Source of the DNA: Deltaproteobacteria bacterium
GTDB lineage: Bacteria > Desulfobacterota > Desulfobacteria > Desulfobacterales > Magnetomoraceae
DNA: 51,167 nt
Assembly: GCA_002753725.1 (NCBI GenBank)
Contig: PEAL01000001.1
Location: forward strand, 1-51,167
Reading direction: 5' to 3'
The notes beneath the pieces are model-generated. The model did not search any database. It was not told where the DNA came from and saw nothing but the letters and a program-made list of their open reading frames with translations. Shown here piece after piece: positions 3,910 through 49,540 of this stretch (position 1 is its first letter; each line of letters begins with the position of its first letter). The position numbers were made by a program, and so were the translations under genes.

Positions 3910-5244
3910 ATGAGAGTATCCTTTTTATCTATACTATTAATAAGTTTATTTATTCCTTTTTTGACGCATGCTTCATTTGTTCCAAAATTTCAGGATCAAA
4001 ATATTCATATCAACGATCTTGTGAAACTTTCCGAAACCGGGCAATTATTACTTCTTCATCCAGAAAAAAAAGTTTCATTACCCATTGGAAACGAAAAAAT
4101 AAATGACTTCGATGTCCGATTTTTGACCTCAATATGCGTTATTGAAGCCCCGGTTCATCGTGTTCGCGAAGTTGTGATGGATTTTTCGCATTACCATGAA
4201 TTTATGCCGCAAACCAGCTCCTCCACAATCCTTTCAAAATCAAAAAATCATGTAATCAATGAAATCAAACTATCGGTTAAAGTTCCTTTAATTCATATTG
4301 GTGTAAAGTTTACATTGGATTATTTTATGGAGCCTGATGGCGATATTAGCTGGTTTCGTGTTAAAGGTGATATGAAAGGGAATGTAGGACGATATGAATT
4401 CATTTCTCTTGGGCCCAATCGAACCATGCTCATAATGACCTATTGGACTGAATTACGAGGTATTGGCTTTCTAATGCGACTGTTACTAAGAGCCCAGCCA
4501 GATTTGGAAATGGCGATACCTGTATCCACAGGTTCATTGATTCTGGATGCCATCAAAAAACGATGTGAACTGACAGCTCAAGACGTTCCACCGGATATTA
4601 ACACGATCAGCAAGTTACCAAAAGATCCAATCATTCCTGTCTTAACCCAATCAAATATACCGGTAGATACGATCCAATTGCTTTCACGAATAGGAACTCT
4701 TGTTTTTGTGCATCCTGTTCAATGGATCAGAACAGAAAATAATGAGCCTGTTGCTGTCAAATTTGTAACAGCCGCCGGAAGAATGCAAGGTCCACTTGAA
4801 GCTGTAAAACCATTGGTTTCAGATTTTTCACGCTATTCAGAATTCATGTACCAGGTTAAATATGCCAAACGAGAATTGACGTATGATGGAATGATGGTTA
4901 ACTGGCGTTTAAAACTGGGGTTTGCTATCTTTAAATTCTACCTGGATTTTGTATTGGATTATGAATGGAAAAGCAATACTATCCTTTTATATCATTGTAA
5001 AGAGGGTGATTTGGAATATAACTATGGATCCTGGGAATGGTTTCGTCTATCAGACAATCAAACAATGACTTTTTTTACAACAGCTATTCCAATAGGCAAA
5101 CGAGCACCGATGATATTGAAATTTACCAAAATGATTCCCAATAGCCAGGTGGTGATGGGTGCATCGTCCACAGTTGTGGCCATTGAAAAAATGACGCCCT
5201 GGGTAGAAGATCAGGTATTGGAAGCGACGAATTTATATCAATAA
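3910..5244 (+). CDS. Secreted protein with two SRPBCC (START / polyketide-cyclase-like) repeats
   Basis: Sec-type signal peptide MRVSFLSILLISLFIPFLTHA. There are two internally similar halves (VMDFSHYHEFMPQ ... and VSDFSRYSEFMYQ ...). The fold assignment is from motif resemblance only. Confidence 0.5.
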   Translation: MRVSFLSILLISLFIPFLTHASFVPKFQDQNIHINDLVKLSETGQLLLLHPEKKVSLPIGNEKINDFDVRFLTSICVIEAPVHRVREVVMDFSHYHEFMPQTSSSTILSKSKNHVINEIKLSVKVPLIHIGVKFTLDYFMEPDGDISWFRVKGDMKGNVGRYEFISLGPNRTMLIMTYWTELRGIGFLMRLLLRAQPDLEMAIPVSTGSLILDAIKKRCELTAQDVPPDINTISKLPKDPIIPVLTQSNIPVDTIQLLSRIGTLVFVHPVQWIRTENNEPVAVKFVTAAGRMQGPLEAVKPLVSDFSRYSEFMYQVKYAKRELTYDGMMVNWRLKLGFAIFKFYLDFVLDYEWKSNTILLYHCKEGDLEYNYGSWEWFRLSDNQTMTFFTTAIPIGKRAPMILKFTKMIPNSQVVMGASSTVVAIEKMTPWVEDQVLEATNLYQ

Positions 5245-40821: not shown

Positions 40822-40837
40822 TGGCATATTTTCTGCA
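40822..40837 (+). promoter_or_regulatory. Sigma-54 (-24/-12) promoter for the flgF operon
   Basis: TGGCATATTTTCTGCA matches TGGCAC-N5-TTGCA, with correct GG-N10-GC spacing. It ends 38 nt upstream of the flgF ATG. Confidence 0.7.
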
Positions 40838-40875: not shown

Positions 40876-41625
40876 ATGAGCGATGTCATAAACAGTGCAG
40901 CCAATTATGGATTATCCATGGCTGTCCGATCAAGTCTTTCCCAGGATGCGCGATATGACATGATCGCTAACAATCTGGCTAACATAGAAACACCCGGTTT
41001 TAAGGGAGATATGCTGTCCTTTGATAAAACTCTGGATGAAGTTATTACAACAGATTTTACTGATGGACAGATGCACCACACAGGCAATCCCCTGGATGTG
41101 TCGGTCAATGATGGTTTGTTTTTTTCGGTTGAAACGCCAGCCGGTACCCGTTTCACACGAAATGGAAGTTTTACCTTGAATGCCGAAGGTATGCTGATAA
41201 CATCAAATGGTCATCCGGTACTGGGGCAAAACGGACCGATAAACATCACTGGAACGGATATTGTCATTAATGAGGCCGGAGAAGTCATCGCAGATGGTCA
41301 AAGGATCGACACTTTGAAAATTATCGATTTTGGTGGTAAAAATATTGGAGAGGGCTGGATTTTTGGAGAAGAAGGCAGTACCTTGGAATCGTTAAAAAAA
41401 GAAGGTTCATCCTATTTTAACTTGGAGGGAGAGACAGCAACTTTGCCTCAAGCAGAGAATGTAAAAGTATCGCAAGGAACACTTGAACAATCAAATGTAG
41501 ACACAATGGCGCAAATGATTAAACTCATTGAAACACAAAGAAGTTTTGAGGCATATCATAAAATAATCAACACGTTCATGGAAACTGATACCAAAGCGGT
41601 AACCGATGTCGGACGTTTAGGATAA
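40876..41625 (+). CDS. flgF: Flagellar basal-body rod protein FlgF
   Basis: N-terminal rod motif ANNLANIETPGFK and a C-terminal LEQSNVD ... MIKLIETQRSFEAY. It lies directly upstream of flgG. Confidence 0.88.
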   Translation: MSDVINSAANYGLSMAVRSSLSQDARYDMIANNLANIETPGFKGDMLSFDKTLDEVITTDFTDGQMHHTGNPLDVSVNDGLFFSVETPAGTRFTRNGSFTLNAEGMLITSNGHPVLGQNGPINITGTDIVINEAGEVIADGQRIDTLKIIDFGGKNIGEGWIFGEEGSTLESLKKEGSSYFNLEGETATLPQAENVKVSQGTLEQSNVDTMAQMIKLIETQRSFEAYHKIINTFMETDTKAVTDVGRLG

Positions 41626-41651
41626 TAAAATAAACGCAAAAGGAGCTTTTT

Positions 41652-42434
41652 ATGATAAGAGGACTATGGTCAGCAGCATCAGGAATGTCTGCACAACAAA
41701 TGAGCATTGATGTGATTGCTAATAATCTGGCAAATGTGAATACCGCAGGGTTTAAAAAAAGTCGTGCGGACTTTCAGGATTTGATGTATCAAACGTTGCG
41801 TGTAGCCGGTGCAACAACAGCCAGCGGAAATGAAACTCCAACAGGTATTCAAGTGGGTATGGGATCAAAACCAGTGGGCGTACAAAAATTGTTCTCCCAG
41901 GGAAATTACAGCCAGACAGATAATGAGTTGGACTGGTCTATTGAAGGTAAAGGTTTTTTTAAAGTCAATACCAATGGTGAAGAATTGTTCACCCGTGCAG
42001 GTGCTTTTAAATTAGACAGTGAAGGCTTTATTTGTACATCGGCAGGTGATCGTGTTCAACCTGAAATGACCATTCCACCGGAAACAATATCCATCGCTGT
42101 TGATCCAGGAGGGAAACTGGTTGCTTTTGGTCCGGACAATGCAGAACTGGCAACAGCGGATATCAAACTTTATTCCTTCTCTAACCCGGGTGGATTGTTC
42201 AGCATAGGACGTAATTTATATCGTCCAACCGATGCTTCAGGTCAGGCGATTGAAGGCGCTCCAGGGCTTGATGGATTTGGTACCATTGGTCAGGGATTTC
42301 TCGAAATGTCAAATGTTGATGTGGTTCAGCAAATGGTATCAATGATTGTCGGCCAAAGAGCCTATGAAGTGAATTCCAAAGCCATCCAAACGGCAGACAG
42401 TATGCTTCAAATGGCAAATAATATTAAGAAGTAG
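41652..42434 (+). CDS. flgG: Flagellar basal-body distal rod protein FlgG
   Basis: MIRGLWSAASGMSAQQMSIDVIANNLANVNTAGFKKSRADFQDLMYQ and a C-terminal GFLEMSNVDVVQQMVSMIVGQRAYEVNSK. Confidence 0.95.
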   Translation: MIRGLWSAASGMSAQQMSIDVIANNLANVNTAGFKKSRADFQDLMYQTLRVAGATTASGNETPTGIQVGMGSKPVGVQKLFSQGNYSQTDNELDWSIEGKGFFKVNTNGEELFTRAGAFKLDSEGFICTSAGDRVQPEMTIPPETISIAVDPGGKLVAFGPDNAELATADIKLYSFSNPGGLFSIGRNLYRPTDASGQAIEGAPGLDGFGTIGQGFLEMSNVDVVQQMVSMIVGQRAYEVNSKAIQTADSMLQMANNIKK

Positions 42435-42442
42435 AGTAAGTT

Positions 42443-43423
42443 TTGCTTCTGTTTGAGATACCGTTTCATTTACGATCAATACTGGTGGAAAGCGTTATCA
42501 TTTGTTGCTTGGCATTTTCTGCCTTTGCACAACAATCAATAACCATAACCATTCCACCAAAGACATGGGTCAATGATCAGCGGGTTTACTTAAAAGATGT
42601 TGCAACGATTAATGCCCCTGCACATTTAAGCGAAAAAATTGCAAATATTTATTTGACGTACGCGCCCAAACCTGGAAAAAGTAAAACGGTTAAAGGTTCA
42701 TGGATTGAAGCACGAATTAAAGCGATTAATTTTTTTGAAGAGATTTCTCTTTCCATTCCTGAAAATGTTGAAATGTTCAGGTCATCTCAAGTCGTTACAC
42801 AGGATGATTATTTTAACTATTTTAACGATTTTGTATCAAAAAACATTGGATCAGATGTTCGTTTTGAAATCAGCCGGTTTCAGGTCAAAGGCGACGAGCC
42901 ACTGCCAGTAGGTCACTTGACAATAGATGTTCAACGTCAGACATCGGTCGATCTCAGAGGTTTTGTAAGCCTGACAGCATCGATACTAATCAATGATGTT
43001 TTTGTTCAGCGTGTTGGACTTTCTGGATGGATTGATCGATTTGAAGATATCGTTTGTGTTGCACAACCCTTGGATCGAAATCATTCCATTGAACAAAGAG
43101 ATATTGTGCTTCGGTCGCGTAACGTTTCTAAAGTTAAAGATTCTTATTATACCCGTCTTGAAGATGTTGTGGGGAAACGAATTAAACGGAAAGCAGGCAA
43201 TGGTGAAATTATTTTTTCATCTATGATTGAAGTCCCCCCCATGATCTATAAAGGGAACACAGTGACAATTATTGCAGAATCAAACGCATTGATTATTAAA
43301 ACAACTGGCATTGCACAATCAAATGGTTATCCCGGTGAACAAATTCGGGTCAAAAATACCATGAGCAATAAAATTGTTCAGGCGATTGTTGTGGATCAAA
43401 GCACGGTAAAAGTACAATACTAA
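42443..43423 (+). CDS. flgA: Flagellar P-ring assembly chaperone FlgA
   Basis: Signal-like N-terminus and a C-terminal SAF/FlgA motif (GNTVTIIAESNALIIKTTGIAQSNGYPGEQIRVKN ... VVDQSTVKV). The start (TTG at 42443) is uncertain. Confidence 0.8.
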   Translation: MLLFEIPFHLRSILVESVIICCLAFSAFAQQSITITIPPKTWVNDQRVYLKDVATINAPAHLSEKIANIYLTYAPKPGKSKTVKGSWIEARIKAINFFEEISLSIPENVEMFRSSQVVTQDDYFNYFNDFVSKNIGSDVRFEISRFQVKGDEPLPVGHLTIDVQRQTSVDLRGFVSLTASILINDVFVQRVGLSGWIDRFEDIVCVAQPLDRNHSIEQRDIVLRSRNVSKVKDSYYTRLEDVVGKRIKRKAGNGEIIFSSMIEVPPMIYKGNTVTIIAESNALIIKTTGIAQSNGYPGEQIRVKNTMSNKIVQAIVVDQSTVKVQY

Positions 43424-43439
43424 ATTAAGGAGCATCATT

Positions 43440-44168
43440 ATGAAAAACAATATGATGTACTGGCTAACCTCTTTTTTGATGCTGTTATGTGCCTGTGCCT
43501 CTGGCCCAAAGGCAACACAAACAACGGCCAATGATGAATCAATTGTAGCCCCATCGCATCCACCCATTCAGGAAAAATTACCCATAACAGAAATGTATCA
43601 GCCGCCAAAACCTTACGAAGGCTCATTATGGACAGATAGTGGGATGAACTTGTTTGGTGATAACCGTGCGGTTAAAATTGGTGATTTAGTGACGGTCCGC
43701 ATTTCTGAAAATCCAAAAGCAAAACTCCATGCAAAAACAGATACAAACAGAGAAACCACAATGAGTGGAAATGCAAATTTTTTGGGATATATGGAAGCAC
43801 TCCAACAAAAAAATAAAAATTTGAACCCTGCAAATTTAATTAACACCAGCTTTAAACCCGCATTTGTCGGTGAAGGCACCAATAATAGAGATGGCAACAT
43901 GACGGCCTATGTCACTTCGCGTGTCATTCGTGTCTTACCCAATGGAAATCTTTATATTTCCGGCCGCAGAGAAATAAAAGTTGATCAAGAAACTCAATAT
44001 ATTACGCTATCTGGCATTGTTCGTCCCGAAGATATTGACCTGAATAATGAAGTGCAGTCAACTTATATCAGTGATGCAAAAATCGAATATTCAGGTCGCG
44101 GCGTGATTGCAGAAAGACAACGTCCCGGATGGATGATGCGACTGCTGGATACAGCATGGCCATTTTAA
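43440..44168 (+). CDS. flgH: Flagellar L-ring lipoprotein FlgH
   Basis: Lipoprotein-type signal ending LLCAC. Conserved GSLW, IGDLVTVRISEN, TNNRDGNMT and ISGIVRPEDI blocks. Confidence 0.93.
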   Translation: MKNNMMYWLTSFLMLLCACASGPKATQTTANDESIVAPSHPPIQEKLPITEMYQPPKPYEGSLWTDSGMNLFGDNRAVKIGDLVTVRISENPKAKLHAKTDTNRETTMSGNANFLGYMEALQQKNKNLNPANLINTSFKPAFVGEGTNNRDGNMTAYVTSRVIRVLPNGNLYISGRREIKVDQETQYITLSGIVRPEDIDLNNEVQSTYISDAKIEYSGRGVIAERQRPGWMMRLLDTAWPF

Positions 44169-44171
44169 CAA

Positions 44172-45365
44172 TTGACAGGAATGTTTGACATGAAAAATCG
44201 ACCCATTCACATCAGTTTTTATTGTTTGCTTGCCTTTGTTTTTTGTGTATCATCGGCATCAGCAATTCGTCTCAAGGATATGTCCTCATTTAAAGGGGTT
44301 CGTAACAACCAGCTTATGGGCTATGGATTGATTGTTGGTCTTAATGGAACAGGAGACAAAGCCGGTACCGACTTTACGGTTCAATCCCTGGTCAATATGC
44401 TCGAACGAATGGGGGTTCATGTTGATAAAGCTAATGTTAACATGAAAAACGTAGCTGCTGTAATGGTTACATCCAATATCCCGCCATTTGCGAAAATTGG
44501 TCAAAAAGTTGATATTACCATTTCATCATTAGGCGATGCTCAAAGTCTTCAAGGGGGAACCCTTCTGCTCACACCACTTCGCGGTGTCGATAGAAAAGTA
44601 TACGCACTTGCACAAGGTCCTCTTTCTGTGGGAGGCTATACTGCTGGTGGCGCTGCAGGCGGTGGCGCCACAAAAAATCATCCCACTGTTGCCAGAATAT
44701 CAAGAGGAGCATCCATTGAACGTGAAATTCCCATTACACTACAGGGAAGAGAATTTTTAACGTTGATGCTCAATAATCCAGATTTCACAACAGCAATTCG
44801 TGTCAGAAACAGTATCAATGAAAAATTTGGTCAAATTCTTGCCAGTACTTCAGACTCAGGAACTGTTCAAATTCAAGTCCCTCATAATTTTAGAAATAAC
44901 ATCGTCCAGATGATTGCTGCCATTGAAAATTTACAGGTGGTTCCGGATACTGTCGCCAAAGTGATTGTTAATGAAAAAACCGGAACAGTCGTTATCGGTG
45001 AAAATGTTCGTATATCAACGGTTGCCGTTGCTCATGGCAATTTAAGTATTCAAATCAAAGAGAATATCAATGTATCACAACCCTCACCATTTGCCCCCGC
45101 AGCACCAGCAGGAGTAGGAACCACTCAAGCGCCCATGAGTGGCGGGCCTATCATGGCACCGGGAGGTCAAACAGTTGTTTCACCCAATTCGGATGTATAC
45201 GCTGCGGAAGAAGATAATAAATTATTGCTGGTGCCTTCTGGAAGTACGATTGGTGAACTGGTTCGGGCATTAAATGCCATTGGGGTGACACCAAGAGATT
45301 TGATGACTATACTAATGTCAATCAAAGCAGCAGGTGCGCTTCAGGCTGAAATTGAAATCTTATAA
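44172..45365 (+). CDS. flgI: Flagellar P-ring protein FlgI
   Basis: Signal peptide, then IRLKDMSSFKGVRNNQLMGYGLIVGLNGTGDK, QGGTLLLTPL and a C-terminal ILMSIKAAGALQAEIEIL. The likely true start is ATG 44181 or 44190. Confidence 0.95.
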   Translation: MTGMFDMKNRPIHISFYCLLAFVFCVSSASAIRLKDMSSFKGVRNNQLMGYGLIVGLNGTGDKAGTDFTVQSLVNMLERMGVHVDKANVNMKNVAAVMVTSNIPPFAKIGQKVDITISSLGDAQSLQGGTLLLTPLRGVDRKVYALAQGPLSVGGYTAGGAAGGGATKNHPTVARISRGASIEREIPITLQGREFLTLMLNNPDFTTAIRVRNSINEKFGQILASTSDSGTVQIQVPHNFRNNIVQMIAAIENLQVVPDTVAKVIVNEKTGTVVIGENVRISTVAVAHGNLSIQIKENINVSQPSPFAPAAPAGVGTTQAPMSGGPIMAPGGQTVVSPNSDVYAAEEDNKLLLVPSGSTIGELVRALNAIGVTPRDLMTILMSIKAAGALQAEIEIL

Positions 45366-45850
45366 TGAATAAAGACCTGAATAAAAACATATTCTATTTT
45401 ACCATATTAGTAATATCCTTTATTGGTGGTTCTTTCTCATTTATGTTCTGGAATTATTTGGCTGATTTTTCAAAAAATATCAAAGCAGCAGATGCCATAT
45501 CCATTGCAAATACTTATATTGTGTTTACGACGATTATTTTTGTAGGATTTTCTGTATTTCTTGCAATCGCAGGTTTTATCTTTACGCATCAGTTTTCAAC
45601 AACAAAAGAAGATCAATTCTCACACTTGCTCAGAGAATTGGGAACCCAGTTAAAAGAAAATGAAGATGACGTTGGCATTAAATTTATCAGTAAATCACTT
45701 GAAAATCCGGATGTAAAAAATTACCTGAGTGATAAATTAAATAAAAAGTTAGACCAGTTAATTAAAGAAAAAGCATACAATCTAAACAAAGAACAAACGA
45801 TTATTAACGGTTTATCATCATCAGACCATGCCAAAGATCAAGGAGGTTGA
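45365..45850 (+). CDS. Small 2-TM membrane protein with charged C-terminal tail (unknown function), inserted in the flagellar operon
   Basis: Two hydrophobic helices (FYFTILVISFIGGSFSFMFW and YIVFTTIIFVGFSVFLAIAGFIF), then a Lys/Glu/Asn-rich tail. TAATG overlap with the flgI stop. Markedly AT-rich. Confidence 0.6.
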   Translation: MNKDLNKNIFYFTILVISFIGGSFSFMFWNYLADFSKNIKAADAISIANTYIVFTTIIFVGFSVFLAIAGFIFTHQFSTTKEDQFSHLLRELGTQLKENEDDVGIKFISKSLENPDVKNYLSDKLNKKLDQLIKEKAYNLNKEQTIINGLSSSDHAKDQGG

Positions 45851-45852
45851 AT

Positions 45853-46440
45853 ATGGAGCATATAAAACCATACACTCCAAAAAGATTTGACACAGCATCA
45901 GAATTAATAAACCATTTGGAAACAAAAGAAAATTTCACGCTTTCTTTACCTGTTGACATTGATACGATCGCAGACTTATTAGGTATTAAAGTCCGATACA
46001 TTTATGATCAGGACAATTATAATACCATTGGCTCTATCTCTCTTAAAGAAGACAAAGCAACAGTAAAAATCAATATCCCTCAAAATGATTATGAACCCAG
46101 AAGAAGATTCACACTTGCACATGAAATTGGGCACCTATGTAAACATCTATCAGAAAGCAGAAGCACGATTATCGATACGCATCAGTCAATGAACAGAACA
46201 GCATCTTATTGGGATACGATAGAATCAGAAGCAAATACCTTTGCTGCACAGCTGTTAATGCCAAAAGAACACATTTTCAGCCAGGGAAATCACCTTATCT
46301 CAGAATATCAAAATGATCATTGCGTTGCTCAAATGCCCGTTGATGTGTTTGTTGAAAATATGTCGCGAATATTTAAAGTGTCAACGCCAGCAATGCGCTA
46401 TCGTTTGAAAAATCTTGGATTAATAGACTCTCTTTCTTGA
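45853..46440 (+). CDS. ImmA/IrrE-family (COG2856-type) HExxH zinc metallopeptidase
   Basis: PVDIDTIADLLGIKV ... RRRFTLAHEIGHLCKH ... ESEANTFAAQLLMP ... STPAMRYRLKNLGLI follows the ImmA/IrrE layout. AGGAGG lies 6 nt upstream of the ATG. There is no signal peptide. Confidence 0.75.
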   Translation: MEHIKPYTPKRFDTASELINHLETKENFTLSLPVDIDTIADLLGIKVRYIYDQDNYNTIGSISLKEDKATVKINIPQNDYEPRRRFTLAHEIGHLCKHLSESRSTIIDTHQSMNRTASYWDTIESEANTFAAQLLMPKEHIFSQGNHLISEYQNDHCVAQMPVDVFVENMSRIFKVSTPAMRYRLKNLGLIDSLS

Positions 46441-46459: not shown

Positions 46460-46759
46460 ATGGAACTTATAGATACAAGTGTACAACGAACCGATCTTAA
46501 ATCATGGGATTCAGCCCCAAAAGATAAAAAATTAAAAGCTGCCTGTCAGGAGTTTGAATCCTTTTTTATTTATGAACTTTTAAAATCGGCAAAAAAGGCC
46601 AATCCCCAAGGTCTATTTAACAATCAAAAAGAAATGGAATCCTATTCATCCATGATGGATCTTGAATTTGCCAAAAGTATCGCACAGGGGGGTGGTATGG
46701 GGTTGGGTGATATTTTATTTCATCAGCTTCAATCAACTGAACAACAGACAGGCAAATAG
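46460..46759 (+). CDS. flgJ: Flagellar rod-assembly protein FlgJ, rod-binding domain only
   Basis: 99 aa with the rod-binding motif KLKAACQEFESFFIYELLKSAKKA ... MMDLEFAKSIAQGGGMGLGDILFHQL. No glycoside-hydrolase or peptidase domain follows. Confidence 0.8.
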   Translation: MELIDTSVQRTDLKSWDSAPKDKKLKAACQEFESFFIYELLKSAKKANPQGLFNNQKEMESYSSMMDLEFAKSIAQGGGMGLGDILFHQLQSTEQQTGK

Positions 46760-46821: not shown

Positions 46822-47307
46822 ATGATTGAACAAGAAATTATAACATGCTTTGATCGATTGTATGGTCATTACACGGATTTGTATGCGTCCTTGAAAGAAG
46901 AACGCAGATATATCCCTCAATCAAACGTCGATCCTCTTCAAGTTGTTGTTCAAAAAATTGAGAATACTGTGGAAAAAATCAAACAGGAACGGATGGATTT
47001 AGTCTCTTTTCTATCAAAATATACCGGTAGCAGTTCACCTTCACTTGACGTTGATACCTTACTGCGATTTATTTCACCGATTTATCACAATGAATTTCTC
47101 ACACTGTATGAAGATGTTGACCGGTTAATCAATGAAATCAAGCGGTATGGCAAAGAAAACCGGTTTTTGATTGAAGATTGCCTGACATTTATTGATGAGA
47201 CGATTCGAGGGGTACTGGGGGCAAAGGATAGCAATCCAACCTATGACAAAGAAATGAAATTGCGCAAATTAAAAATGAATAACGTATTATTGAATAAAGA
47301 GGTGTAA
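46822..47307 (+). CDS. flgN: FlgN-like flagellar export chaperone
   Basis: 161-aa helical protein directly upstream of, and abutting, flgK. The call rests on position, size and helical heptad-like composition, with no strong motif. Confidence 0.5.
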   Translation: MIEQEIITCFDRLYGHYTDLYASLKEERRYIPQSNVDPLQVVVQKIENTVEKIKQERMDLVSFLSKYTGSSSPSLDVDTLLRFISPIYHNEFLTLYEDVDRLINEIKRYGKENRFLIEDCLTFIDETIRGVLGAKDSNPTYDKEMKLRKLKMNNVLLNKEV

Positions 47308-47308
47308 T

Positions 47309-49540
47309 GTGGGTGGTAGTATAGGCTTGCTGATGCAAATCGGCGTAAGTGGTTTGAGAAATCATCAATATGGTGTGGATGTAACGGCACATAATATTGC
47401 TAACGTCCATACAGATGGTTATTCAAGACAGACAGCGGAAACCTCTGCCAGACCGGGCATTAAAACGGGCGGCTTGGTTTTTGGTCAGGGCATTTATACA
47501 AGTGAAATCAAAAGAAATGTTGATGAAATTGTTAATAAACGACTGGATGAACACCGTTCCGCTTTAGCGAAATATACAGAACTTGAAACTGCCATGACCA
47601 CCCTTGAAGGTTTTTTCAGTGAGACAGGCAACTCCTCAGAAACAAGCTTAAGTGCATTGATGTCAGAGTTTGAAAATGCCTGGCAATCTGTTGCCAACAA
47701 CCCCAGTGGTGAGGCGGAAAGAGCCACATTGCTGGAACAAAGCAAAAGTTTGACAGAATCCTATCGCGGGTTGGATGAATATTTGAGAGATTTTCAGATT
47801 GATCTTACTCGAACCATTGCCAATGGTGTCGATGAAATCAACATGATCACCAGAGAACTTGCTGAAATTAATAAAAAGGTCTATGGCCTTGAGGCAGATT
47901 CTGTTATTGCCAATGATATGCGCGACAAACGAGATGTTTTAATTACAGATTTAAACGAACTGATGAATGTCAACACCTATACTCAGGAAAATGGTTTTAT
48001 TACGGTTACCACTGCAAAAGGGGCAATTCTGGTTAATGGCATGGATAGTTATCAGTTGGAAGCTGTTGGTGATCCAGATACAGGAATGTCTATCATCAAT
48101 TGGCTGACATCCGGCTCGCGTAAACTGGATATCACTGATGGTATCACTGACGGCAGTTTGGGAGGGTGGATTGAAATGCGTGATACCATTATCGGTTATC
48201 CTGATAAAACCGGTATTCGCGCAGACTATAACAGCTTGGCCAAAGAATTTGTATGGTCCATCAATAGGCAACATACCCAGGGATCTGGTATTGAGCTTTT
48301 TCCACCCAGTACCACATTGGTGGGTACGTATTATACAACTGATGATGATGCCACCATGAGCAGCCTGCCCTATGGAGACCGGCTTTATTTTGGGGTTGAT
48401 AAAGTGGGAGATACGCCGGCCATTCCAACCAGTTTTGATATGTGGATCGGAGACAGTGCAGGGGATAATATCAGACGTGTTAATGTTAAAATGATTACTG
48501 CCGGCAGCGTTGGCGAAGAAGATGTCCAATTGCTGACAATTGCAGACACGCCGGGCGAATTGGCCGATACCATCAATAAGCAGGTAGCCCTGGCTTTGGG
48601 AAAAGATGAAGAAGTTTTTGCAGAATTTGCAAAAGTGCCGGTCTTTGCAGAGATGTCAGAAGAAGAACTGGCTGAAATGACAGAAGAAGAACTGGAAGTT
48701 TTGCAGTCTTTACCAGAATCTGCACTGACACTTAAGTTTGGCTCAGATGCAACGTTTTCATTTGGTTTTTCTAATGACAATTCTAATGTGCTTGCAGCTC
48801 TGGGAATCAACACCTTTTTTAAAGGATACACTTCCGGCACCATAAAAATGAACAGTGTCATTGATAATAATATTAACTATATTGCAGCAGGCCGCATTAC
48901 TGATCGCCAGGATACAACCTACAATGTTTCACCGTCCATTCAGATGACCGATCTTGGAACCACAGGAAGCCTTAAAACAGCCGGTCCATACACTGGAACC
49001 GACATTGCCCTTTATGAAGTAAAAGTTGAAGCAACCGCTGATAAAGATGCCGTACAGTTCAAGTGGCGAAAAAGTCTTGACGCGGGAACCACATGGGTTC
49101 AAGGCGAGTGGGCCGATGTCACGGATGTTTTTTCCGGAAAAGATCCTATTACCCTTGAAAATGGTGTAACCCTAACATTTGAAGCAGGAAACTATGTTAA
49201 GGATGAAACCTATCGTGTCGAAGCAACTGCTGGTGGTGTTATTTCATACAGCAGTAATGAAAATGCATTTGCCATCACACAATTGGTTGAACCCATTCAG
49301 GAAAACTATCATAATCAATTGACCATTATCGGTATAAAATCTTTAGCGATTTCTCGGGAAAAAGGGATTATTGACGTTTCCACCGATCAGCTCAATGAAG
49401 TTCGTGATAATATTTCTGGTGTATCCCTTGATCAGGAATTTACAAAACTGGTAGAATTTCAACGATACTATCAGGCTGCTGCGAAGCTTGTCCAAACAGC
49501 AGATGAACTAATGAAAACAGTAACCACATTGAAACAATAA
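47309..49540 (+). CDS. flgK: Flagellar hook-associated protein 1 (FlgK), enlarged 743-aa form
   Basis: N-terminal GVSGLRNHQYGVDVTAHNIANVHTDGYSRQ and a C-terminal VSLDQEFTKLVEFQRYYQAAAKLVQTADELM. GTG start. The central region is large and includes an acidic EMSEEELAEMTEEELEVLQSL segment. Confidence 0.92.
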   Translation: MGGSIGLLMQIGVSGLRNHQYGVDVTAHNIANVHTDGYSRQTAETSARPGIKTGGLVFGQGIYTSEIKRNVDEIVNKRLDEHRSALAKYTELETAMTTLEGFFSETGNSSETSLSALMSEFENAWQSVANNPSGEAERATLLEQSKSLTESYRGLDEYLRDFQIDLTRTIANGVDEINMITRELAEINKKVYGLEADSVIANDMRDKRDVLITDLNELMNVNTYTQENGFITVTTAKGAILVNGMDSYQLEAVGDPDTGMSIINWLTSGSRKLDITDGITDGSLGGWIEMRDTIIGYPDKTGIRADYNSLAKEFVWSINRQHTQGSGIELFPPSTTLVGTYYTTDDDATMSSLPYGDRLYFGVDKVGDTPAIPTSFDMWIGDSAGDNIRRVNVKMITAGSVGEEDVQLLTIADTPGELADTINKQVALALGKDEEVFAEFAKVPVFAEMSEEELAEMTEEELEVLQSLPESALTLKFGSDATFSFGFSNDNSNVLAALGINTFFKGYTSGTIKMNSVIDNNINYIAAGRITDRQDTTYNVSPSIQMTDLGTTGSLKTAGPYTGTDIALYEVKVEATADKDAVQFKWRKSLDAGTTWVQGEWADVTDVFSGKDPITLENGVTLTFEAGNYVKDETYRVEATAGGVISYSSNENAFAITQLVEPIQENYHNQLTIIGIKSLAISREKGIIDVSTDQLNEVRDNISGVSLDQEFTKLVEFQRYYQAAAKLVQTADELMKTVTTLKQ

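Follow-up and report, generated by a model that had tools for sequence, protein, structure and literature searches.

In the anti-phage system RosmerTA, a zinc-peptidase antitoxin is combined with diverse toxins in toxin-antitoxin (TA) pairs, 58 % of which are toxin-first, and ImmA-domain proteins have been described as a hub antitoxin node (PMC10440598; bioRxiv 10.1101/2022.05.11.491447). In the same work the RmrT toxin of Gordonia phage Kita was found to depolarise the membrane. Here we describe a two-gene cassette that lies between the flagellar genes flgI and flgJ in a 51,167-nt stretch of contig PEAL01000001.1 (the window, to which all coordinates refer) and that encodes a small membrane protein followed by an ImmA-type peptidase. 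Comparison with related loci indicates that these two genes form a self-contained module that moves horizontally and otherwise occurs as a 'moron' in temperate phages, integrase-flanked islands and defence islands. We lean, with modest confidence, towards the view that the pair is a TA or abortive-infection-type module of the RosmerTA kind that was captured in the flagellar operon and is not a flagellar part, and in which the peptidase would neutralise a membrane effector.

The membrane protein has 161 amino acids and is encoded at 45365-45850 (+ strand); the peptidase, a zinc metallopeptidase of the M78 (ImmA/IrrE/CapP) type with 195 amino acids and no helix-turn-helix (HTH) domain, is encoded at 45853-46440 (+). 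An initial annotation, made from the letters of the window, had set these two open reading frames apart from the flagellar genes around them, and our map agrees. The junctions are exactly as it described them. The stop codon of flgI overlaps the start of the membrane gene in a TAATG (45363-45367, +), an AGGAGG Shine-Dalgarno sequence (45841-45846, +) sits within the 3' end of the membrane gene 6 nt before the peptidase ATG, the gap between the membrane gene stop and the peptidase start is 2 nt, and the flgJ ATG comes 19 nt after the peptidase stop. The peptidase start is the ATG at 45853; an in-frame TTG is also present at 45847.

Among known systems the pair comes closest to RosmerTA with a toxin that depolarises the membrane, as in phage Kita, but it falls outside that system. 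The two share a two-gene, often overlapping and frequently toxin-first arrangement, an ImmA/M78 zinc-peptidase domain in one partner, a second partner from a small and variable family that can be membrane-active (PMC10440598), and carriage by phages and defence islands. Most RmrA proteins combine an HTH with the zinc peptidase, whereas the peptidase described here has no N-terminal HTH; the membrane protein matches no RmrT model in PADLOC and, unlike RosmerTA, the module is embedded in a flagellar operon. In more general terms the pair looks like a type II-like TA module, being a tightly linked two-gene unit with a patchy, mobile-element-associated distribution.

By profile, motif and predicted fold the peptidase is a true member of the M78 (ImmA/IrrE) family, and proteolytic activity is predicted for it. 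The initial annotation had called the family from motifs, all of which are present in the translation, and had proposed a profile search, which bears the call out: Peptidase_M78 (PF06114) matches with an E-value of 4.3e-13 and 49.6 bits against a Pfam cut-off of 22, and the structure matches as well. In PADLOC the best model is CapP (1.6e-24), followed by a series of RmrA models down to 6.6e-15. These matches are confined to the peptidase domain, the CapP profile aligning only at positions 7-150 of 242 and the RmrA profile only at positions 163-295 of 380. The NCBIfam spr1629 repressor/antitoxin model agrees at the domain level only (44.8 bits against a cut-off of 335), and PHROG 2439/87 also match at the domain level.

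The AlphaFold2 model of the peptidase, built from 41 homologues, has a mean local confidence (pLDDT) of 91.8 and a predicted template-modelling score (pTM) of 0.88. Its best Foldseek matches in the PDB are CapP (7t5t, E-value 5.5e-7, TM-score 0.62), IrrE (3dti, 6.6e-5) and PprI (8sln, 1.6e-4). The zinc-binding and catalytic motif H90-E91-x-x-H94 (HEIGH; 46120-46134, +) and the presumed third M78 zinc ligand E124 (ESEAN; 46222-46236, +) are invariant across 42 family members including the copy in the window. In the latter stretch, which aligns with the motif IEAQAD of CapP 7t5t, A127 is invariant and N128 nearly so. No signal peptide, transmembrane segment or C-terminal sensor domain was found in the 195 residues; lacking the first two, the peptidase is predicted to be cytoplasmic. 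A Pfam search for HTH domains gave no match in either protein. The initial annotation had remarked that no HTH partner gene is present, and indeed none was found by Pfam or in the operon.

The AlphaFold2 model of the membrane protein is all-helical (pLDDT 77), with helices at residues 3-32, 41-98, 103-111 and 115-155. The first two contain the two transmembrane helices that had been noticed in the sequence, in agreement with hydropathy and with a positive-inside analysis of 40 homologues, in which the N-terminus has a net positive charge (+2.2) and the 13-residue loop does not. The probable topology is thus N-in/C-in, with a first transmembrane helix at about residues 9-32, an outer loop of 13 residues, a second helix at about residues 47-76 and a charged, helical cytoplasmic tail of about 85 residues. 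The protein family carries an invariant ANTYIVFTTIIFV motif, and its signature DAxSIANTYIVFTTIIFVG (D43 to G61; 45491-45547, +) covers the lead-in and the first half of the second helix. Twelve residues of this stretch, among them N49 and Y51-V60, are invariant in an alignment of 40 homologues that are otherwise 24-72 % identical. Two loop motifs are conserved in the tail, QQFSxSKE directly after the second helix and ENPDV at a helix break.

This membrane protein has no significant match in Pfam, NCBIfam, PHROGs or PADLOC (none in PADLOC at E<=0.1), its model finds no match in a fold search against the PDB, and PLSDB plasmids contain no match. The family is small, with 104 clusters at 90 % identity and 178 cluster representatives among 1.84 billion proteins. 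A more distant form of the pair is found in Helicobacter marmotae (L063 2657-3552; also L064 and L065), where a distant M78 peptidase, 34-37 % identical, is preceded with a 4-nt overlap by a 115-residue protein with one transmembrane helix. This protein is homologous to the second helix and tail of the family (hhalign probability 95.9 %, E-value 5.4e-9) and carries a recognisable version of the motif, DIIALANSY. The pairing therefore extends to a one-helix homologue and the module family is wider than its two-helix form. A gene with a Fic domain lies close to the H. marmotae pair on the opposite strand. On these sequence comparisons the pair defines a small, formerly unannotated family in which a membrane protein with two (or one) transmembrane helices is joined to an HTH-less ImmA-type peptidase.

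The two genes behave as one unit. Scans with a profile of the membrane protein yielded 31 metagenome loci and 9 IMG/VR loci, and all 39 loci with sequence beyond the membrane gene have a peptidase homologue directly 3' of it, on the same strand. The trees of the two genes are largely congruent. In relatives the genes overlap by 4-8 nt and a GGAG-type ribosome-binding site lies inside the membrane gene, at the same position in L001, L002, L005, L009 and L055. No recurrent third gene was found beside the pair among the surveyed loci.

We surveyed the neighbours within about 4 kb at 26 non-redundant, non-flagellar loci. They include six phage integrases, four CI-like repressors with HTH_3 and S24 domains, Abi_2, HsdR and type I-C Cas, and no HTH gene recurs beside the pair in these loci. 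L005 and L009 adjoin an integrase or an integrase fragment, and in L007 and L008 genes for DUF4007 and PAPS reductase, which we take to be Ssp-like, lie nearby. In three IMG/VR prophage contigs (L031/L049, L053 and L054) the pair follows the CI-like repressor immediately and in the same orientation. The host GC content of the loci bearing the pair ranges from 37 % to 65 %.

The pair also occurs in an isolated temperate phage, Burkholderia phage Milagro (OM638609, L055), the only match to the membrane protein in a search of GenBank phages. There it forms genes 045/046, the peptidase homologue matching PF06114 at 2.5e-15, and has the integrase on one side and a Vsr/C5-methylase/Eco29kI restriction-modification module on the other, with a terminator after the pair. 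Both genes are annotated merely as 'hypothetical proteins', and the site (genes 045-049) resembles a moron or defence hotspot.

How the pair came to lie in a flagellar operon can be followed among the close relatives of the window. A scan of GTDB genomes with FlgI recovered just five loci, all of them distant (48-56 % identity), and the close relatives came instead from a FlgI homologue search and contig look-ups. The arrangement flgF-G-A-H-I-[membrane gene-peptidase]-J-N-K-L is also present in L001/L015, in L002-L004 (Ca. Magnetomorum sp. HK-1) and in L016, where the cassette proteins are 74 %, 67-71 % and 68-73 % identical, respectively, to those of the window. The overlap of flgI with the membrane gene is shared by L002, while L001 and L016 have gaps of 5-6 nt. 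Only these loci of the Magnetomorum clade (window, L001-L004, L015, L016) have flagellar neighbours among all the cassette-bearing loci.

Other flagellated relatives have an empty flgI-flgJ junction: L060 (FlgI 93 % identical), L056 (86 %), L057 (85 %), L061 (77 %), L062 (69 %) and L010-L013 (53-56 %). The cassette thus does not co-occur with the flagellar gene set. In L060 the junction is a 24-nt spacer (4177-4200) in which no remnant of the cassette is left. When seven flagellar proteins were concatenated (2295 columns), neighbour joining made L060 the sister of HK-1 (bootstrap 100 %) and put it within the cassette-bearing clade (98 %), whereas a clade of the four bearers alone received 0 %; L056 and L057 are sister lineages without the cassette. 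The flagellar copies are monophyletic in both cassette-gene trees, with a topology matching that of the flagellar-gene tree, and they are closest to the non-flagellar L005 and L007. A single insertion, exactly at the flgI-flgJ junction in the ancestor of one sub-clade of multicellular magnetotactic bacteria (the Ca. Magnetomorum HK-1 group), followed by vertical descent and one clean loss, explains this most simply. Bearers and non-bearers among these closely related magnetotactic bacteria co-occur in the same metagenomes, L015, L016 and L056 being from one sample and L001, L004, L060 and L061 from another (JGI 3300028595, ENA ERZ27252164).

After capture the cassette has been kept under purifying selection. 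The ratio of nonsynonymous to synonymous substitutions (dN/dS) is 0.13-0.16 for the membrane gene and 0.11-0.14 for the peptidase gene, compared with 0.07-0.22 for flgA, flgJ and flgN, in a comparison that leaves out flgI against L002 and flgI against L016 and in which the ratios are approximate because synonymous sites are almost saturated (dS about 1.0-1.7). The flagellar copies have kept each residue that is invariant in the family, and nothing therefore marks a change of function. The locus is a rare, datable case in which a mobile module was captured within an operon of core structural genes, was stripped of all intergenic DNA and was kept long enough to saturate synonymous sites.

Base composition contributes less to this picture. 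The hand counts of G+C in the initial annotation are exact for the membrane gene (29/120) and for the start of flgJ (24/60), and its samples of flgI (52/120) and of the peptidase gene (17/60) agree with a mean of 52 over 120-nt windows of flgI and a range of 16 to 26 over 60-nt windows of the peptidase gene. Its conclusion that the cassette is compositionally foreign is upheld only in part. Among the 40 genes compared in the window (38 reference open reading frames plus the two cassette genes), the membrane gene does have the lowest total GC (z=-4.2), but GC at third codon positions is only marginally low, at 0.272 (z=-1.9) for the membrane gene and 0.296 (z=-1.3) for the peptidase gene against a host mean of 0.346 (range 0.278-0.427). 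The deficit of the membrane gene falls mostly at codon positions 1 and 2 and thus reflects amino-acid composition; flgJ and flgN are likewise low in GC. We therefore rejected composition as proof of foreign origin, with third positions nearly host-like and a deficit that is mainly amino-acid driven. It is the comparative sequence evidence, not composition alone, that establishes the foreign origin, and the composition is compatible with an insertion that is old and has ameliorated. A search for target-site duplications or for repeats flanking the cassette in the window, L001, L002 and L016 found none.

The initial annotation had offered, as one of two readings, a horizontally acquired pair riding on a sigma-54 flagellar transcript. 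The evolutionary core of that reading stands: the homologues lie in prophages and islands, the cassette is downstream of a conserved sigma-54-type element, and its presence at the junction is sporadic and limited to one sub-clade instead of extending across the order. The link to flagellotropic phage that the annotation attached to this reading is speculative. The element in question, TGGCATATTTTCTGCA (40822-40837, +), is of the -24/-12 type and lies 39 nt upstream of the flgF ATG, at the start of an operon that begins at 40876 after housekeeping genes; it is the likely operon promoter. This assignment is suggested by its match to the sigma-54 consensus TGGCAC-N5-TTGCW. The 16-mer is identical in six diverged genomes (window, L001, L002, L016, L056 and L057) while the intergenic surroundings are not conserved. 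In the relatives it lies 38-45 nt upstream of flgF, at L001:922, L002:959, L016:3327, L056:642 and L057:641, and at L058:645 (gMMP-1) as the variant TGGTATCTTTTTTGCA; L011 also has a variant of the element. A generic sigma-54 pattern scanned over the whole window is not above chance, and the signal emerges only when the DNA ahead of flgF is compared between species.

The tight junctions leave the cassette no space for a separate promoter, and it is thus most likely transcribed together with flgFGAHI-JNKL from the sigma-54 promoter. A scan for sigma-70 promoters and terminators between 40.5 and 50.5 kb gave counts not above the shuffled expectation; a sigma-70 site within flgI (45285-45313, +) and a hairpin at 45560, in the second transmembrane helix, were accordingly rejected as evidence. 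The membrane gene has no separate Shine-Dalgarno sequence and its translation is probably coupled to that of flgI. Together with the flgI overlap and the strong ribosome-binding site of the peptidase, this predicts a low, FlgI-coupled level of membrane protein and an excess of peptidase, which would be the stoichiometry expected of a toxin-first TA pair.

We hypothesize that the pair works as follows. Ribosomes that finish flgI would re-initiate on the membrane gene at the flgI stop codon, and the peptidase would be translated from its own strong ribosome-binding site. The membrane protein would be the effector, depolarising or permeabilising the inner membrane through its invariant second helix, and the peptidase its cognate regulator, acting on the cytoplasmic tail and normally holding the membrane protein in check until the balance is disturbed by infection or stress. 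The roles are assigned in this way because ImmA-family proteases typically cleave the product of a neighbouring gene (ImmR, DdrO, CapH) and the only constant neighbour here is a membrane protein with a cytoplasmic tail. Both the toxicity of the membrane protein and the use of its tail as a peptidase substrate are suggested by analogy. If an ImmA-type protease truly acts on a membrane protein, the substrate range of the family would extend beyond DNA-binding repressors.

The analogy with other M78 systems is partial. CapP, which together with CapH has a place in the cyclic oligonucleotide-based antiphage signalling system (CBASS), gives the best profile and structural match and shares the HExxH...E core; unlike CapP, the peptidase lacks the C-terminal half, its partner is a membrane protein, and the neighbours are flagellar genes, with no CapH-like HTH or CBASS genes nearby. 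ImmA/ImmR of the mobile ICEBs1 and IrrE(PprI)/DdrO of Deinococcus have the same M78/COG2856 fold and a substrate encoded by the adjacent gene (PMC2701414). There, however, the protease acts on an Xre-type DNA-binding repressor and the switch works through transcription, whereas the cassette has no DNA-binding protein and the flagellar operon no HTH gene, adjacent or fused, that could serve as the repressor of such a switch. The position downstream of a CI-like repressor in three prophage contigs recalls the lambda cI-rexA-rexB arrangement, but neither sequence nor fold relates the pair to RexA or RexB, and Rex has no protease; this is analogy, not homology. Class II holins typically have an N-in/C-in topology with two transmembrane helices and a charged cytoplasmic tail. 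The membrane protein resembles them in topology only, having no sequence or fold similarity to any holin.

Several points weigh against a RosmerTA-like module with a neutralising peptidase. By sequence the membrane protein resembles no known toxin, holin or PADLOC model, the peptidase is without the HTH of most RmrA proteins, and the pair has no DNA-binding domain with which to regulate itself. That the cassette is dispensable is shown by its clean loss in L060 and is unexpected for a strongly addictive TA system; the placement of L060 in turn rests on the flanking flagellar genes, and regional recombination could mimic a loss. Purifying selection, for which the ratios are approximate, and tight operon integration would equally fit a domesticated host function. 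Finally, by analogy with CapP and ImmA responding to a signal, the peptidase could activate the membrane protein rather than neutralise it.

This last point leads to an alternative in which the logic is reversed and a signal-activated peptidase, responding to infection or to DNA damage (for example to single-stranded DNA), cleaves the tail, whereupon a latent pro-effector becomes an active pore and infection is aborted without classical TA addiction. CapP and the IrrE/PprI enzymes are switched on by DNA-damage signals, which for CapP and PprI is single-stranded DNA. These are the best profile and structure matches of the peptidase, and the PprI entry 8sln was solved with single-stranded DNA. 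The clean loss in L060 without apparent penalty also suits a non-addictive module, and the tail motifs QQFSxSKE and ENPDV could be a cleavage or recognition site. Nevertheless we consider the reversed order unlikely, as the 195-residue peptidase is without the C-terminal GAF-like sensor domain of CapP and IrrE and, in tested RosmerTA pairs, it is the peptidase that neutralises, an rmrA deletion not being transformable (bioRxiv 10.1101/2022.05.11.491447). It is conceivable, albeit with quite low probability, that the pair is instead a non-lethal prophage, superinfection-exclusion or regulatory module in which the membrane protein anchors or sequesters the peptidase, itself the active 'toxin', and the substrate is a third protein encoded elsewhere, for example a repressor of phage or host origin or a protein that a phage injects. 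COG2856 was first predicted to be a toxin partner of Xre antitoxins (Makarova et al. 2009, PMC2701414), the membrane protein is unlike any known toxin, and the pair adjoins the CI-like repressor in the immunity region of the three prophage contigs. Those repressors, however, have their own S24 self-cleavage domain and neighbour the pair in only 4 of the 26 non-redundant loci, the surveyed loci share no third gene, and the extreme conservation of the second helix, with its twelve invariant residues, is hard to explain for a passive anchor.

We regard it as very unlikely that the pair was domesticated for a host function, whether in flagellar assembly, flagellar number or consortium cell fate. 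Its perfect operon integration, with the TAATG overlap and the 19-nt spacer, its retention in at least four diverged genomes and a purifying selection similar to that of flgA and flgN are what such a role would leave behind; the same copies, however, keep all the family-invariant residues, and homologous pairs occur outside any flagellar context in many other taxa. A particular form of this idea, a flagellum-dedicated protease and anchor that compensates for the lack of a hydrolase domain in FlgJ, was the second reading of the initial annotation, and we find no support for it, as the cassette is absent from close flagellated relatives. FlgJ is a single-domain protein (84-131 amino acids, Rod-binding only) in all relatives with or without the cassette, and a hydrolase-less FlgJ therefore needs no explanation here. 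The cassette is missing from the nested L060, from the sisters L056/L057 and from all outgroups, each of which has such a FlgJ, and cassette-free populations of the L060 type already suggest that flagella and motility are intact without it. In addition, the peptidase lacks a signal peptide, and its family, M78, consists of cytoplasmic regulators and not of cell-wall enzymes.

The RosmerTA-like reading gains some context from a second insert at the same junction. In Ca. Magnetomoraceae bacterium gMMP-1 (FlgI 74 % identical) a different, overlapping two-gene insert, encoding proteins of 84 and 163 amino acids, lies between flgI and flgJ (L058 5177-6151, with an identical arrangement in L059). 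The 163-residue protein contains an inserted zinc ribbon and has a full-length but sub-threshold match to PIN (5.9e-4). On either side of this two-gene insert lies a copy of a 72-nt direct repeat (93 % identity between the copies), which starts with the final 9 nt of flgI and carries GC-rich hairpins. A TA-like, PIN-like pair at this position supports a junction that tolerates or attracts TA-like modules, and the presence of unrelated TA-like pairs in two Magnetomoraceae genomes points to a candidate insertion hotspot.

Since the Magnetomoraceae are obligately multicellular, cell suicide has a special meaning in these organisms. A speculative and rather improbable extension of the RosmerTA-like reading is that the cassette acts as a flagellum-coupled abortive-infection switch. 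Driven by sigma-54 and re-initiated after FlgI, the effector would be made when flagella, the receptor of flagellotropic phages, are built, infected cells would be sacrificed for the consortium, and the flgI-flgJ junction would be a landing pad for suicide modules. If true, this would also explain the PIN-type pair of gMMP-1 at the same junction.

Two short direct DNA repeats connect the membrane gene with the peptidase gene, 45620-45654 with 46109-46143 (77 % over 35 nt) and 45576-45593 with 46169-46186 (89 % over 18 nt), and one of them spans the HExxH codons. They are not conserved in L001, L002 or L016 and we discarded them as probably due to chance. Upstream of the cassette, flgF, flgG, flgA, flgH and flgI occupy 40876-45365 (+; Pfam and open reading frame list) in an order that is identical in all relatives, flgI itself running from 44172 to 45365 (+; Pfam FlgI). 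Downstream follow flgJ (46460-46759, +), which encodes 99 amino acids with a Rod-binding domain only (Pfam 1.4e-9), flgN (46822-47307, +; Pfam FlgN) and, in the open reading frame map, flgK (47309-49540, +). In L062 an extra open reading frame of 75 codons without a Pfam match (4692-4919) lies between flgJ and flgN.

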